The notes under the pieces are model-generated. The model saw nothing but the letters and a program-made list of their open reading frames with translations, searched no databases and was not told the DNA's origin. 64,000 nt of DNA, from the IMG/VR virus record IMGVR_UViG_3300033555_000001, positions 224,001 to 288,000 of that record; one strand, given 5' to 3'. Shown piece by piece: positions 50,455 through 63,118 of the stretch. Positions within the stretch are counted from its first letter, which is position 1; each line of letters starts with the position of its first letter. A program made the translations under genes and the position numbers. Origin of the DNA: a virus. Lineage: Duplodnaviria; Caudoviricetes.

Positions 50455-50840
50455 GTAAAACAGCGTAAACTCAGTTTTTGAAAAGTTGAACAGGACGGGA
50501 GAGTCGGAGCTCCCCACCTCCACCAAAAGCGCTCTAGTAAGTCTGCAACGCGATCAGACTTTGAAGGCGGGAAACTTGGACTAAGCGTGACGCCTCTAAC
50601 AATTCTCTTAAGGGATTGATTTTGGGAGAGCCAAGTACTAGAGTGTTTTTGATGGGGGTGAATTGGAATCGACTGGCAAAATAGTAAACTACAGAGCGCT
50701 CGAGAGATGACCGACGTAATCGGCATAAAAACCTTAAATGCAAATGATAGCGCATTTTACGGAGACACACGCCTAGCAGCGTGATGCCCGCGAGGCTAAC
50801 CACCTTGTCACCGAACGGTAGGTAAGAAGTTTTACCGCTT
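50455..50840 (+). ncRNA. ssrA: circularly permuted (two-piece) tmRNA; tag ANDSAFYGDTRLAA
   Basis: Acceptor 3' end GGAC-GGGAG/CTCCC-CACCTCC-ACCA at 50493-50525 precedes the 5' end GGGGGTG-AATTGGAATCGAC at 50654; G3-U70 pair; tag 50740-50784; outer boundaries approximate. Confidence 0.88.
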
Positions 50841-52031: not shown

Positions 52032-52490
52032 ATGGGCGCCGCATCCTATCTTCTAGTTAGCACCCTGCTCACAGCAGGAGTCATTGCAGGTGTTCACGCC
52101 GTGCAGCAAGAACCACCAAAAGAAGAGGCGTGGGTGCTTATTGGCAGTACCCAATTTGTCAGATTTGACGTTCACCGTGCAACCATTGAGACGAATGCAG
52201 AGACGCAGTCCGTGCAATTTGTACTTCGCTCGCAGTTTAAAGTCGCAGAAGACGGCGTAAAGACTGTGCTGGAACCAACTGTAATTTTGTGCAAATCTCG
52301 CACTATGATTACCACTGGGCGCTCGCACTATTCTGAGGCTCACAAAGAACTGCCCGCAAAACAGGGTGCTACCGTGTACGAAGACCCGGGGGTCAAAGGC
52401 CACGTTGTAACAGTGTTGATACAAATGGCGTGCGATCCAACTGATACCGTTACAGAAAAAAGAACTAAAAAATCAAACGTTAGTATATAA
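52032..52490 (+). CDS. secreted protein, surface-adhesin E-like
   Basis: ATG 52032, signal peptide, WVLIGS...D....., ILC..R, terminal C. Confidence 0.5.
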   Translation: MGAASYLLVSTLLTAGVIAGVHAVQQEPPKEEAWVLIGSTQFVRFDVHRATIETNAETQSVQFVLRSQFKVAEDGVKTVLEPTVILCKSRTMITTGRSHYSEAHKELPAKQGATVYEDPGVKGHVVTVLIQMACDPTDTVTEKRTKKSNVSI

Positions 52491-52499
52491 TTACTTATT

Positions 52500-52575
52500 G
52501 CCGATGTAGCTGAGCGGTTACAGCAGAGGATTCTAAATCCTAAGATCCCCGGTTCGAATCCGGGCATCGGCACCA
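52500..52575 (+). tRNA. amber suppressor tRNA (anticodon CUA)
   Basis: GCCGATG/CATCGGC acceptor, GCTG/CAGC D-stem, loop TT-CTA-AA, TTCGAAT, ACCA; 76 nt. Confidence 0.9.
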
Positions 52576-52600: not shown

Positions 52601-52795
52601 ATGCTTACCACCACAGCAATTGCCTTAGTTTATTTTGTATTCGTCACTGCGGTTTATTTCTGTATTATTGCCGTGATAGTAAAAGATGGTCGAACTAACA
52701 CCACGCCCACAAAACGAAAATATAACTCAATCATCTTTTTCGCTGTTACCGTGTTCTATATTGTGTCAATGATTAGCAGCACGCTAACTTTCTGA
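52601..52795 (+). CDS. small membrane protein
   Basis: GAGG RBS, two TM. Confidence 0.65.
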   Translation: MLTTTAIALVYFVFVTAVYFCIIAVIVKDGRTNTTPTKRKYNSIIFFAVTVFYIVSMISSTLTF

Positions 52796-52839
52796 GCAAT
52801 TTAAACTTTAATTACGTTATAAGATATCTAAGAGACTCC

Positions 52840-53058
52840 ATGTTAGAAGATCCTAAACACGACATACCAGCTGTAAAGACACGGGCAACTTTAGTAACAG
52901 TAAGCAAAATTAAAAGTGCTGCTCTCAGACGCACTGTTATTGTTTTAACCTTTGTGCCAATGCTGACTGCTAATATAGTGTGTGTTGGTATTGCTGCGGT
53001 GAAGGGGCTGTTCAGAAATATAACTGTGGTATTTTCTACTGCGGTAAAACACTGGTAA
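52840..53058 (+). CDS. small membrane protein
   Basis: Hydrophobic central segment. Confidence 0.55.
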   Translation: MLEDPKHDIPAVKTRATLVTVSKIKSAALRRTVIVLTFVPMLTANIVCVGIAAVKGLFRNITVVFSTAVKHW

Positions 53059-53105
53059 TTTTACTACTTTAAAATATAAGACGCTATTTTATACACGGGA
53101 AATCA

Positions 53106-53519
53106 ATGAGCGTTATAGCTAACTTTGTGAATCGTTTATTTCCGTCTTTGGCGCATCATTTTGCTTCATCGTGCACGCTGCAGGTTTCAAAAGCAAATGC
53201 TCAGCAGCTTGAGGCTCTTGATATTGACAAGATACACATTGAATACCGGCCAATCATTGGCGCTCTAGTTCCACGCTTTTATTGGGGTGAAGGTGAAGGT
53301 GATCACTTTCTACCCGACGGTTATTTGCATTTGCCGACGGTTCCAATGATCATAACGCGGAAGGGGCAAAACAGCTATTCAGTCCGCGCTTTTAAAGAAC
53401 ATCAATCGATGAGCGCTGTGGAGTTTAATGGTTTTATCGCTCAGCTGATTATAGATGCAATTACCACGATCAATTATAAAAATTACCTGTTCGACAAACA
53501 CGCGACAAAAACCTGGTAA
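53106..53519 (+). CDS. hypothetical protein
   Basis: GGGA RBS. Confidence 0.65.
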   Translation: MSVIANFVNRLFPSLAHHFASSCTLQVSKANAQQLEALDIDKIHIEYRPIIGALVPRFYWGEGEGDHFLPDGYLHLPTVPMIITRKGQNSYSVRAFKEHQSMSAVEFNGFIAQLIIDAITTINYKNYLFDKHATKTW

Positions 53520-53689
53520 TTTTCCCGGACGGCTCTAAACTTACCGGCGCAACTGAACAAAAAATGGATACGGTGTTTGCGGTTACAAAATAACCAGTAC
53601 CTGTTAGTAACCTGAACTAATTTTATTTGATTCTGAAAACTGTATTAATATACAAGAGTACTAAAGATTAACCAACCACTGGAGTTAAC

Positions 53690-54040
53690 ATGAAGCACTA
53701 GATTGAAAATCAGAAAACATATTTGTACGCAATCTCTCGCCGAGATATTCCTCTCGCGCAACAGGGAATTCAAGCAGCTCATGCTGGAATTGAATTTGCC
53801 TATCAGTACGGTCGCCCTGCCGATCACCATTCCTCGTATATTCATTTAACTGTTCGCAACAAAGAACACCTTGAGCATCTCTGTGCGCAGCTTTTGGCGT
53901 GCGGCCAGCGTACGGCTGAATTCCACGAGCCATATCAAGATTGGGGCTTAACCGCAATTGCAACAATTTTAACAGAAGAAAATCGCCATTTACTTAAAGG
54001 CCTACAACTGTGGCGCCTACCAACTCAGGAGCAATCATGA
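53690..54040 (+). CDS. peptidyl-tRNA hydrolase 2 (Pth2)-like protein with in-frame TAG at codon 4
   Basis: GGAG-N5-ATG AAG CAC TAG ATT GAA... in frame with Y.ISRRDI...Q.IQAAHA...L.V....F.EP...GLTAIA. Confidence 0.75.
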
Positions 54041-54477
54041 ACTATACAATTGTAGCACACAGGGAAACTGATTCAGGTACTGACCGACGCGGTGATTACT
54101 ATCGTAACCCTGGCGATTTTTATTTTAGAGCATTTCAAGAAGATCAAAAAGGCGAGTTCATCAGCAAGTGGGCTGAGTTTAGTCTTGAAAATAATCACGA
54201 TGATTTACACGTTATGATTAACGGGCTGACAGAGGATGAATTCGCCGGCAGCACTGATCCGCTGGATGTTGCCAAATATTCTGAATTTGCAGCCATTACA
54301 GAATTAATGTATCTGAAGCGAGCGGTGCTTCATCATGAGCGTGCAGCAAAAGAAGCCGGTCGGCTGGGCCGTGAGACTGCTCAAAAAGCGGTGAATGAAA
54401 TTAAAAACAAGCTTGTTGCTCGCCAACAGGCTGAAGCTGAAATAATCAGATTACAAAACTCGCTGAGGAACCTATGA
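54037..54477 (+). CDS. hypothetical protein
   Basis: ATG 54037 with AGGAG RBS. Confidence 0.7.
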   Translation: MNYTIVAHRETDSGTDRRGDYYRNPGDFYFRAFQEDQKGEFISKWAEFSLENNHDDLHVMINGLTEDEFAGSTDPLDVAKYSEFAAITELMYLKRAVLHHERAAKEAGRLGRETAQKAVNEIKNKLVARQQAEAEIIRLQNSLRNL

Positions 54478-55025
54478 AAATTACACTGAACCAAAATCCG
54501 CTGCACGCAGTTGTAGAACTAGATGAGCGTGAAATTGCAGCACTTAGACAAAAGCTGATCATTGCTGATCTCGAAGACAGATTGGCTGAAGCCAGCTTTA
54601 GATTAACGGACGGAAAATATTTTAACCTCGAACTAGCTCGCAAATCTACCAAGCTTAGCTTTCTAGATGAAGACGGTGCTACCGGTGAACACGCTCAGGA
54701 GATTGATAGGCGCCTCAAGTACTATGTTGAGGCACTCACTGAGGTGCACGGTGGTGACTGCACGTGTATTCCGGCCTCATGTATGAAGTGCCATGCTGAA
54801 GAGATGCTTGGAATTGACACCGCACCGTACAGCAAGCACACTGGTAATTCTATTCAGTCTGCGTTTAGTAAACCTGGCACTACACTTGATGAAGCAATTG
54901 AGGTACTCCGCACGCCCATTGAGCCACAGAAAGGTTATGAACAGCACTTGGCGCGGTGGAATGTTCAAAGGGCACAGGCACTAATTGCCTTACTTGAACA
55001 CCAGAAAATGCTATCTGTCACCTAA
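54474..55025 (+). CDS. hypothetical protein
   Basis: H.GDCTC.P.SC.KC.AE Cys cluster. Confidence 0.75.
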   Translation: MKITLNQNPLHAVVELDEREIAALRQKLIIADLEDRLAEASFRLTDGKYFNLELARKSTKLSFLDEDGATGEHAQEIDRRLKYYVEALTEVHGGDCTCIPASCMKCHAEEMLGIDTAPYSKHTGNSIQSAFSKPGTTLDEAIEVLRTPIEPQKGYEQHLARWNVQRAQALIALLEHQKMLSVT

Positions 55026-55480: not shown

Positions 55481-55786
55481 ATGAATCAGCAAAACGAACG
55501 AGTTTGGTATACCGCAAAGCTGCTCCCGGCAGCGCAGGCAATTTTTACTGAGGGTTTTTACCCTGAACCCAAGGCTCGTACGGGTAATCAATATGTGTAC
55601 TTTACCCAAATCGATCCCACGCCGCTGAACGCCAAAGTGCTTGTTGCCTCGCGCCTGGCAGAGAATTCATTTCGCATGCTGACTGCTGACTTGGCAAAAT
55701 TTTGTCTTGAGCCCGGCGAAAAAGCAACTCGCGCCGAAATGAAGCAGTTAAACGAACTCAGCGCGCACCTAGAAAGAAATGTCTAA
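55481..55786 (+). CDS. hypothetical protein
   Basis: 101-aa ORF. Confidence 0.65.
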   Translation: MNQQNERVWYTAKLLPAAQAIFTEGFYPEPKARTGNQYVYFTQIDPTPLNAKVLVASRLAENSFRMLTADLAKFCLEPGEKATRAEMKQLNELSAHLERNV

Positions 55787-56297
55787 TACCGGGCGCCATC
55801 TTTTTATAGATTTAGAGGATACCGTCATTGAGCCGGTACTCAACGGCTGGGGGCGCACAGCTCTCTTGAACATCGAAAAAGTAAAGCGCTTTATCAAAGA
55901 ATTTAAACCAAATACCGTTAACATCTTTTCGTTTGCTATTTGGAATACAGCAGAACTTGATAAGTTTAATACACTGTGCCGCCCTGGATTAGAACAGGCA
56001 CTTGGCATTAAATTTAACGCAATTCCTACAGTAGATGACGACATTATTCCGATGTGCTGTAACGTGCTGGGCATTGGCCAGGGCGCTGTTGACTTTGACG
56101 ACTGCAGCACTTTCTGGGGAAAGCACGAGGCGTTCAGATTGAATATGCGTCACCTGGCCAAGGCTTCACAGAGACCACTTGAGGTTGCATTTCTGGATGA
56201 TGCAGTTTTTAACGAGAACTTTGAGTGGCCTGATCTGAAAATTTCCGGTCGTATAATCAATATTGATCTGATGCCTGATTGCGAGAGCGCTGCATGA
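55779..56297 (+). CDS. HAD-superfamily-like protein
   Basis: LFIDLEDTVI motif I, AFLDD motif IV. Confidence 0.55.
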   Translation: MSNTGRHLFIDLEDTVIEPVLNGWGRTALLNIEKVKRFIKEFKPNTVNIFSFAIWNTAELDKFNTLCRPGLEQALGIKFNAIPTVDDDIIPMCCNVLGIGQGAVDFDDCSTFWGKHEAFRLNMRHLAKASQRPLEVAFLDDAVFNENFEWPDLKISGRIINIDLMPDCESAA

Positions 56298-60461: not shown

Positions 60462-60538
60462 GCCGGGCTGGCGCAATTGGCAGACGCGTATGCCTTAGGA
60501 GCATAATGTTCTCGGTTCGAGTCCGAGGTCCGGCACCA
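60462..60538 (+). tRNA. tRNA-Leu(TAG) with short variable loop
   Basis: GCCGGGC/GTCCGGC, CT-TAG-GA, 5-nt variable region. Confidence 0.82.
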
Positions 60539-61056: not shown

Positions 61057-61983
61057 ATGAAAGTTCTACTCTTGGCGCTCCTGTTCAGTGCTTCGGTGGC
61101 AGCCGCACCAAAAAATACCACCGCAAAAATTCCAGTACAAGACCGACCAGAGTTTCAGGAAACGCTGAACTTGCAAATCCTCCTGGATCGGGCTCATTTT
61201 TCAACGGGTGAAATTGACGGTGTTCCAAGCGTTAAAATTACGCGAGCACTCAAAGCATTTCAGGAACAAAATAATTTAGAAATTACCGGAGTGCCTGACG
61301 CTGGAACTACGCAAGCGCTAAACGCGACGGCCGAGAATATGCTGATCGACTATACGTTAACTGCAGCTGATTTAGATGTCAAGTTAGTAAAGAGTATACC
61401 TCGCACCATGCTGGCAAAGAGTAAACTACAACGCCTGCGCTATACTTCACTCTCTGAAGCACTGAGTGAACGTTTTCAGGTAAGCCCTAATGTTTTTAAA
61501 TTTCTGAATCCAACTGCAACATTCTCTGTTGGCAGCACCGTTAAAATTCCGGCAGTGGGAGGACCTCTCGCGGCTCAAGTAAGCTCAATAGTGGTCAGTA
61601 AAGCAAACAGCTCACTCACTCTGCGAGATGCGCAGAATAAAATTGTCGGGTATTACCCAGTAACACTTGGTGCTCAAGTATCTCCATCGCCGAGTGGAAC
61701 TTTAAAAGTTAAGTCAATCACAAAGAATCCGTATTACAATTACGATCCAGAGCGCTTTGAGAGTAAAGGCACAACAATTAAAGTAACGCTTCCACCAGGT
61801 CCAAACAACCCAGTAGGTTTAGTCTGGATTGCGCTGTCAAAGCGGCACTATGGAATTCATGGAACGCCCGATCCGTCTAAGATTTCAAAGACGAATTCAC
61901 ACGGCTGTATTAGATTAGTAAACTGGGATGCACTTGAAGTTGCAGATGCTGTTGCAGCGGGCGTGCCAGTTTTGATAGAATAA
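61057..61983 (+). CDS. L,D-transpeptidase (YkuD) with peptidoglycan-binding domain
   Basis: Signal peptide, GEIDG...ALKAFQ...TG PG-binding, YGIHGT...SHGCIRL. Confidence 0.9.
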   Translation: MKVLLLALLFSASVAAAPKNTTAKIPVQDRPEFQETLNLQILLDRAHFSTGEIDGVPSVKITRALKAFQEQNNLEITGVPDAGTTQALNATAENMLIDYTLTAADLDVKLVKSIPRTMLAKSKLQRLRYTSLSEALSERFQVSPNVFKFLNPTATFSVGSTVKIPAVGGPLAAQVSSIVVSKANSSLTLRDAQNKIVGYYPVTLGAQVSPSPSGTLKVKSITKNPYYNYDPERFESKGTTIKVTLPPGPNNPVGLVWIALSKRHYGIHGTPDPSKISKTNSHGCIRLVNWDALEVADAVAAGVPVLIE

Positions 61984-62440: not shown

Positions 62441-63118
62441 ATGGCTGAAACTGTTTTTACTGATATGAGCGCAACGCAAAATCGCGTACTGCGAAATACA
62501 TACTGGTTGTTAGCGCTCTCGTTACTGCCAACAATTGCTGGTGCTTGGGCAGGTGTTGCATTTGGTTTTAGCGCACTGTTAATCGGCAGCCCAATTCTAT
62601 CTTTTGTATTATTTCTGGCGGTCGCGTTTGGATTCATCTTTGCGATTAACGCAACAAAAGATTCGGCGCTTGGAGTACCAATCCTGTTAGCCTTTACATT
62701 CTTCATGGGGCTGATCATGTCACCGCTGATTGGCACTGTGCTAGGCATGAAAAACGGCGTTAGCTTGGTATCGCTTGCCGCTGGCGGAACAGCTCTTATC
62801 TTTGCAGTAATGGCGATTGTGTCTTCAACGCTGAAACGTGATATTTCGGGCTGGGGAAAATATCTAACCATTGGTGTAGTCTGTTTGATTGTAGCAATGT
62901 TAGCAAATATGTGGTTCAAGCTGCCGCTCTTTGCACTGATAATTTCGGTTATTGCGGTGGTAATTTTTTCAGCCTTTTTGCTGTACGATTTGAAGCGAAT
63001 CGTTGATGGAGGCGAAACAAACTACGTCATGGCTACGCTTGCAATTTATCTTGATTTAGTTAATATCTTTCAGAATCTGCTCGCTGTTCTTGGGCTGACC
63101 GCCGGAAACGACGATTAG
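62441..63118 (+). CDS. yccA: Bax inhibitor-1 / YccA family membrane protein
   Basis: NRVLRNTYWLLALS, seven TM, GGETNYVMATL.IYLDLVNIF. Confidence 0.92.
   Translation: MAETVFTDMSATQNRVLRNTYWLLALSLLPTIAGAWAGVAFGFSALLIGSPILSFVLFLAVAFGFIFAINATKDSALGVPILLAFTFFMGLIMSPLIGTVLGMKNGVSLVSLAAGGTALIFAVMAIVSSTLKRDISGWGKYLTIGVVCLIVAMLANMWFKLPLFALIISVIAVVIFSAFLLYDLKRIVDGGETNYVMATLAIYLDLVNIFQNLLAVLGLTAGNDD

Follow-up and report, generated by a model that had tools for sequence, protein, structure and literature searches.

A candidate amber suppressor tRNA and a Pth2-fold gene gated by an early TAG in a standard-code jumbo phage

The tRNA with a CUA anticodon and its surroundings

The window (the whole stretch of 64,000 nucleotides analysed here) covers positions 224001-288000 of one contig, which has 310,728 bp and 45% GC. 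The source is an uncultured jumbo phage that uses the standard code. T4-like genes (among them nrdA and a gp18-like sheath) are present on the contig, and ARAGORN called 25 tRNAs, spread over both contig ends, with 11 in the window. One of these tRNAs has the anticodon CUA and is referred to below as tRNA(CUA). It is preceded by a permuted tmRNA and followed by an open reading frame (ORF) with a Pth2-like predicted fold, whose coding sequence is interrupted by TAG shortly after the start codon (Table 1).

Table 1. Features at the tRNA(CUA) locus and around it (window positions unless stated otherwise)
Feature	Position	Strand	Basis
Permuted (two-piece) tmRNA	50462-50784	+	Rfam RF04321, 104.9 bits; 1.7 kb upstream of tRNA(CUA)
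Promoter-like bipartite element: CCGTTACA box (52447-52454), 31-nt spacer, TATAAT (52486-52491)	52447-52491	+	Motif recurrence
tRNA(CUA), probable amber suppressor	52500-52575	+	ARAGORN, Rfam, fold, covariation
Three small ORFs between tRNA and gated gene (52602-52796, 52841-53059, 53106-53519)	52602-53519	+	ORF reading
Gate: GGAG (53681-53684), 5-nt spacer, ATG AAG CAC (53690-53698), TAG (53699-53701), then A	53681-53701	+	Sequence; recurs elsewhere
Gated gene body, 112-codon Pth2-fold ORF, TGA at 54038-54040	53702-54040	+	Translation, homologues, AlphaFold2, Foldseek
ORF of 183 aa, no known family	54474-55025	+	Homologue follows gated gene in 22 loci
Two ORFs without a Pfam family	55481-55786, 55779-56297	+	Synteny in 20 related loci
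tRNA-Leu, anticodon UAG	60462-60538	+	
L,D-transpeptidase with peptidoglycan-binding domain	61057-61983	+	PF03734, PF01471
Bax1-inhibitor-like membrane protein	62441-63118	+	PF01027, 150 bits
Canonical, ungated PTH2, ~1 kb past the window end (contig G000:288995-289363; locus L072:1471-1872)	64995-65363 on the window scale		PF01981, 109.9 bits

The earlier note on this DNA had described a canonical 76-nt cloverleaf with a CUA anticodon, A73, an encoded CCA end and a short variable loop, standing apart from the main tRNA cluster. This description was borne out by ARAGORN (76 nt, anticodon cta), Rfam, folding and direct reading, and 5.8 kb separate it from the next tRNA downstream (58335). The sequence scores 70.3 bits with RF00005, for which the gathering score is 29; it thus belongs to the elongator tRNA family and is the top-scoring tRNA of the window. 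The minimum free energy fold contains the acceptor, D and T arms (z = -3.65) and beats 200 of 200 shuffles. By direct reading, the acceptor stem is a perfect 7-bp helix (G1-C72 to G7-C66) followed by A73 and CCA, the D loop has 8 nt and the variable loop 5 nt, and the conserved tertiary nucleotides U8, A14, G18G19 and G53-T54-T55-C56 are in place (T loop TTCGAAT). The anticodon loop reads UU-CUA-AA, with C34-U35-A36 at 52533-52535, so that CUA lies in a loop of the usual 7 nt, preceded by U33 and followed by a purine (position 37), as in an amber suppressor. The sole irregularity, also present in some relatives, is that the anticodon stem begins at its top with a mismatch, G27.A43.

Pyrrolysine tRNAs have a 3-nt variable loop, a short D loop and a long anticodon stem, and are accompanied by pylS/pylBCD genes. 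ARAGORN labelled the molecule tRNA-Pyl, as it does any tRNA with a CUA anticodon, but we rejected this label on the basis of the canonical 76-nt length, the 8-nt D loop, G18G19 and the 5-nt variable loop. A recent origin by copying of another tRNA of the same genome was also rejected, as the best identity to the 24 other tRNAs of the phage is 67%. No close DNA relatives were found in the phage collection, and no exact match of the anticodon arm among viral contigs. A run search listed no RNA sequencing runs carrying DNA of this phage.

That the charged amino acid is not readable from the sequence, as had been stated earlier, still holds. When 38 CUA tRNAs were compared with 135 class-I phage tRNAs, the nearest neighbours scattered over Thr, Met, Arg and Ala, with no consistent isotype, and BLAST of tRNA(CUA) against phage records returned weak matches to tRNA-Lys and tRNA-Met. 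Under the identity rules of Escherichia coli, A73 together with U35 would suggest Lys, which for this tRNA is a guess; by the same rules, CUA tRNAs of the G73 type might carry Gln.

The TATAAT hexamer of the promoter-like element ends 8 nt ahead of the first base of tRNA(CUA). The same arrangement, CCGTTACA followed after ~31 nt by TATAAT or TATTAT, occurs at ~18 sites in the genome ahead of genes (for example at G000 247421, 250382 and 263875). A 'tctcagg' element is often found between the box and the -10-like hexamer, and another motif enriched upstream, GCTAAATAG, is similar to the late promoters of T4. The three small ORFs that separate the tRNA from the gated gene are not conserved in related loci. 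A terminator scan predicted no + strand terminator between 52575 and 53690, and co-transcription of the tRNA and the gated gene is therefore possible. The order tmRNA, tRNA(CUA), Pth2-fold gene was found in 5 of the 7 related loci scanned (L003, L006, L014, L016 and L018; RF04321 scores of 94-129 bits).

Further downstream, the variable loop of the 77-nt tRNA-Leu with the anticodon UAG is short, whereas a long variable arm is the rule for tRNA-Leu in bacteria. The acceptor stem of the phage tRNA-Leu (GCCGG.../...CCGGC-A-CCA) is similar to those of the suppressor and of tRNA-Thr(UGU). The genes for the Bax1-inhibitor-like protein and the L,D-transpeptidase lie within the tRNA cluster.

Genetic code of the phage and its amber-interrupted gene

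The genes of the phage were called by a crude codon-usage method with table 11, which yielded 428 genes at a coding density of about 90%. TAA ends 260 of them, TGA 114 and TAG 54 (12.6%). The genome is fully open in table 11, in agreement with the earlier observation that core genes are uninterrupted in the standard code, and the genes then cited as ending with TAG (12160, 12859, 14443 and 63118) do so in the gene call as well. In-frame extensions past the stop codon are of similar length for the three stops, with medians of 8.5 codons for TAG, 10.5 for TAA and 10 for TGA. Long same-frame neighbours follow all three stops at similar rates, each with its own RBS and start codon. Neither an RF-1 domain or release-factor gene nor a bacterial-type Pth was found in the genome. 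Phages recoded to code 15 are recognized by many in-frame TAG codons and by a gain in coding density when TAG is read as sense; here, we found a density of 90% with the standard code, 54 genes ending with TAG and one interrupted gene. Because density, stop codon usage and extensions are normal under table 11 and no release-factor domain is present, we conclude that the phage is not recoded. The earlier view that the tRNA points to suppression and not to recoding thus agrees with the whole genome, and such suppression may be conditional or regulatory.

The earlier note had also proposed a genome-wide scan for RBS-ATG...TAG in-frame fusions. We carried out two such scans for a start codon, at most 8-10 codons, a stop codon and a long coding ORF, and found one convincing amber-interrupted gene in the entire genome, namely the gene at 53690-54040 of the window. 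TAG candidates at G000:210456, 227752, 288490 and 292499 were rejected as intergenic or promoter-like TAGs. A 525-aa gene that stops with TAG at G000:204527 and has 647 codons in frame behind it was rejected as a readthrough target, as the tail-sheath gene behind the stop (MATLVSPG...) has its own AGGAG-N9-ATG.

The ATG of the gated gene lies 1,115 nt downstream of tRNA(CUA), and the TAG is codon 4. The gate reads GGAG-TTAAC-ATG AAG CAC TAG ATT GAA AAT CAG AAA ACA TAT TTG TAC. The lone table-11 start codon in the gated body, a TTG at 53723, has no RBS and falls within the first beta strand of the predicted fold. We defined a suppressor-tRNA-gated Pth2-fold module as an RBS-ATG, 0-4 sense codons, a stop codon and a Pth2-fold ORF without an alternative start, with a matching suppressor tRNA in the same genome; the segment 53681-54040 together with the tRNA at 52500 has all of these elements.

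The gated protein has 117 homologues, which are 43-75% identical to it. An AlphaFold2 model calculated from an alignment of 25 sequences has a pLDDT of 93, and the best 15 matches of a Foldseek search of this model against the PDB are Pth2 enzymes or Pth2-fold proteins (3erj, 1q7s, 1wn2, 2zv3, 1xty, 1rlk and 2gax), with TM values of 0.5-0.72 and a probability of 1.0 for the top matches. The protein is assigned to PHROG 3668, 'hydrolase'. It has no match to the Pfam family profile of PTH2 (PF01981) and no sequence match to solved Pth2 chains. Thus, as judged from the predicted model, it resembles Pth2 at the fold level only, its closest relatives being the archaeal and eukaryotic PTH2 enzymes (PF01981; 3erj, 1q7s, 1wn2, 2zv3 and 1xty), with which it has a common fold (TM 0.6-0.72).

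The phage encodes a second, canonical PTH2, which has no gate. The gated protein carries R-[RK]-D and AQAAHA-like motifs, as does this canonical enzyme, whose 'KGK' segment is absent from the gated protein in the local alignment; when the profile of the gated family was compared with the canonical PTH2, the two matched weakly and only locally. The phage therefore has two Pth2-fold proteins, with the amber gate on the diverged one only. The presence of the ungated canonical enzyme suggests that the gated protein may be a specialised, diverged extra copy.

The 183-aa protein encoded downstream of the gated gene has homologues in the same place in 22 loci (L004, L008, L012, L007, L057 and others), with 30-44% identity, and in many of them the two genes are directly adjacent. 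The two genes may be functional partners. A Pfam search with eight neighbouring ORFs gave nothing usable; the sole signal was a sub-threshold match of this 183-aa protein to the NpmA 16S rRNA methyltransferase (E = 0.0046). The homologues of the two ORFs that follow are 44-80% identical and syntenic downstream of the module.

Conservation of the gate and its linkage to tRNA(CUA)

To survey the gate, 18 viral and 35 metagenomic loci were fetched and duplicates removed. An RBS-ATG-(0-3 sense codons)-TAG arrangement was found in 34 distinct viral or metagenomic sequences, a count that overstates the number of independent events because the loci come from related phages. TAG is the second codon (ATG TAG) in five of them. 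In none of the 34 does an ATG, GTG or TTG occur after the TAG and before the conserved core Y-L-Y-x-I-S-R-R-D-I-P-L-A-Q-Q. A purine on the 3' side, A above all, reportedly favours amber suppression (Bossi 1983; Miller and Albertini 1983). The nucleotide following TAG is A in 33 of the 34 gates, compared with 17 of the 54 genuine TAG stops of the genome (Fisher p = 3e-10, which is an upper bound on the significance because the gated sequences are related).

Sense codons at the gate position are absent from all homologues. Glutamine had been a candidate for this position and was rejected, as the Q in the database proteins P0003 and P0009 stems from code-15 gene calls, which translate only with TAG = Q, and not from sense codons. 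Since a sense codon was found at the gate in no homologue, the N-terminal extension seems to exist just to hold the stop codon. Three lineages (L013-15, L056 and L057) have ungated homologues with a normal start (ATG-AAG/AAA-...-TAC-CTC-TAC), and one locus, L011, has ATG, five codons and TGA at the gate position. Distant relatives retrieved with P0118 (L085-L092) are ungated proteins on smaller contigs without suppressor tRNAs, and no further TGA or TAA gate was found.

The gate is linked to tRNA(CUA). In 16 of ~20 distinct gated loci for which at least 3 kb of upstream DNA was available, the strand of the gate also carries one or two CUA tRNAs. They lie mostly 85-2750 nt upstream of the gate, and in several relatives the distance from the end of the tRNA to the gate is as short as 60-150 nt. 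Four gated loci (L004, L017, L051 and L058) have no CUA tRNA in the fetched DNA; for L017 this holds within 10 kb, and a CUA tRNA lies 55 kb away in its 389-kb genome. The TGA-gated L011 has a tRNA(UCA) 3.7 kb away and no CUA tRNA, which is a single case of the stop codon and the anticodon changing together.

An alignment of 21 tRNAs from related loci (20 CUA and one UCA, three of them from cultured phages) showed that 98.2% of stem cells pair, with compensatory changes in 17 of 19 pairs; none of 500 shuffles reached this covariation, and no slid register came close. A36-A37-A38 are invariant, and C34-U35 differ solely in the UCA tRNA. The tRNAs of the related loci are thus old and diverged and, as their sequences suggest, have been selected as amber readers. 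Two types of CUA tRNA, with A73 or G73, often occur side by side; the present phage has the A73 type only.

One may ask whether the gate is passed without the tRNA, either by re-initiation at AUU or AUC after the UAG or by near-cognate readthrough, with the CUA tRNA serving an unrelated purpose, for example that of a decoy when a host defence attacks tRNAs. In 24 of the 34 gates, TAG is followed by ATT or ATC, which could serve as weak starts, and a role against anticodon nucleases has been suggested for phage tRNAs. However, the codon is AAC, ACA, ACC or GTT in the other 10, it is the upstream ATG to which the RBS belongs, the gate and the tRNA are tightly linked on the same strand, and the lone TGA gate is paired with a UCA tRNA. 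We therefore regard passage without the tRNA as very unlikely.

The module is also present in cultured and named phages. A tblastn search with the gated protein matched 21-34 GenBank phage records, with identities of 33-45%, and the DNA of ten phages from these records was read (Table 2). The gated gene is unannotated or appears as a truncated ORF in the records of RsoM2USA, BF, GAP32, ME3, CBB, XbC2 and Arash because of the gate. The gated ORFs of RsoM2USA (L066:3989-4336) and BF (L073:4989-5312) have no annotated gene. In Arash (OQ632216.1), just the last 50 codons of the gated gene are called, as 'peptidyl-tRNA hydrolase', and the CUA tRNA (L071:4310-4384) is mislabelled.

Table 2. Gate and tRNA(CUA) in the ten GenBank phage records read
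Phage	Gate	tRNA(CUA)
Acinetobacter ME3	M-T-TAG	0.4 kb upstream
Cronobacter GAP32	M-A-Q-TAG	2.8 kb downstream
Salmonella Arash	M-L-TAG	1 kb downstream, GenBank label tRNA-Phe
Serratia BF	M-T-H-TAG	Annotated tRNA-Sup
Pectobacterium CBB	Present	Present
Xanthomonas XbC2	Present	Present
Ralstonia RsoM2USA	M-L-TAG, no gene annotated	One CUA tRNA per PMC8504454
595-kb uncultured phage LR756511	M-T-H-TAG	None within 5 kb
RaK2	No gate	Not seen in stretch read
XacN1	No gate, homologue fused inside ORF364	Two CUA tRNAs

CUA tRNAs also persist beside ungated homologues: they are still nearby in L013-15 and L056 (the short contig L057 shows none) and are present in XacN1, and the gate is therefore not the sole role of the tRNA in every lineage. 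This persistence, the two CUA tRNAs (A73 and G73) kept by some phages, and the placement of the tRNA with a tmRNA and hydrolases, all acting at or near termination, would fit a general, untargeted suppressor, which could provide insurance against nonsense mutations, extend host or phage proteins or relieve ribosomes stalled at UAG when RF1 is low, the gated gene being a by-product or a sensor. Nevertheless, the extensions behind TAG in this genome are neither longer nor more coding-like than those behind TAA and TGA, and the authors of the XacN1 study found nothing behind 18 amber stops (PMC5852040). A by-product is also hard to reconcile with a very early, context-optimised TAG without an alternative start in more than 40 sequences. 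We consider a general suppressor unlikely.

Another reading is an early stage of TAG recoding, in which the suppressor comes first and in-frame TAGs are just beginning to build up. This follows the model of Borges et al. (10.1101/2021.08.26.457843), who reported suppressor tRNAs in standard-code relatives of recoded phages. Yet TAG is not depleted here, where it makes up 12.6% of stops, and the same single gate is found at the same position of the gene across phages whose proteins are 33-45% identical. Retention of the gate at this level of divergence indicates a stable end state rather than a transition, and we regard incipient recoding as highly improbable.

Proposed operation of the gate and its significance

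The anatomy of tRNA(CUA) and of the gate, their uniqueness in the genome, their conservation and their linkage lead us to the reading we prefer: tRNA(CUA) is probably a functional amber suppressor, whose job in this phage would be to decode UAG codon 4 of the Pth2-fold gene 53690-54040 and not to recode the genome. We infer that the tRNA is expressed, that a host synthetase charges it, that the UAG is read through and that the gate serves a purpose.

According to the proposed mechanism, tRNA(CUA) would be transcribed, matured and charged by a host synthetase. Ribosomes would initiate at the RBS-served ATG and reach the UAG after three codons (fMet-Lys-His). With the gate closed, RF1 would terminate on the tripeptide; with the gate open, the charged tRNA(CUA) would insert its amino acid, and a 116-residue protein would be made. 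The output of the gated protein would thus be set by how much mature and charged phage tRNA there is in relation to RF1, while the rest of the genome would stay in the standard code. A stop at codons 2-5 would make a closed gate nearly free of cost. As known from work on minigenes, termination on very short peptides is inefficient, and this would be to the advantage of the tRNA. If active, the suppressor would also read the 54 genuine TAG stops of the phage, and its action there must therefore be weak or tolerated.

As to the purpose of the gate, we would rank first an interlock, or a device for dosing, that makes a specialised tRNA hydrolase depend on a functioning pool of phage tRNAs and on termination activity. 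A read-out of RF1 activity would come second, and negative feedback, with the hydrolase acting on the suppressor itself, third. More broadly, it is possible, although we would not count on it, that a natural sensor of the translation state is made up of tRNA(CUA) and the UAG near the start. Competition between the tRNA and RF1 on a ribosome carrying a peptide of 1-4 residues would then gauge the supply of working phage tRNA against the capacity for termination and in this way dose a specialised tRNA hydrolase, and together with the syntenic tmRNA the sensor would be a phage system for ribosomes at stop codons.

Several known systems resemble the module in part. Recoded phages (code 15, TAG = Gln; crAss-like and Lak phages among others; Borges et al., 10.1101/2021.08.26.457843) likewise combine a phage-borne tRNA(CUA) and genes with in-frame TAG in a standard-code host, and a role as post-transcriptional regulator has been proposed for their suppressor. 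In those phages, however, many structural and lysis genes contain internal TAGs and TAG is mostly lost as a stop, whereas here there is one TAG in one small gene and 54 genes end with TAG; unlike in recoded phages, the tRNA comes without a gene for a release factor or a synthetase. Laboratory amber suppressors and synthetic tRNA logic gates (supE/supF; PMC11669171) also make a gene with an early amber codon depend on a suppressor, and A37-A38 and a 3' A favour suppression in them too, but they are mutant or engineered, whereas the phage module is natural, conserved and phage-borne. The orphan suppressor tRNAs of cultured jumbo phages (XacN1, PMC5852040; RsoM2USA, PMC8504454; Atu_ph07, PMC6102473; and the GAP32, BF and CBB records) match in type of gene and type of genome, and several of these phages carry the homologous gated gene.

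Suppressor tRNAs are thus already known from recoded phages, and in standard-code jumbo phages they have been reported as orphans. [quoted passage not shown] For the present tRNA, a probable target can be named. The idea is directly testable, because several of the phages that carry the module are cultured on laboratory hosts.

If the sensor reading is true, the module would be a conserved single-codon switch in standard-code phages of enterobacteria, Acinetobacter, Ralstonia and Xanthomonas. On the preferred reading, the module would represent a natural one-codon translational gate of the type that synthetic biologists build. It would also join suppressor tRNA, tmRNA and Pth-like enzymes in one theme, phage control of translation termination. 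A conserved, phage-encoded target would provide a testable function for at least many of the annotated suppressor tRNAs of standard-code jumbo phages.
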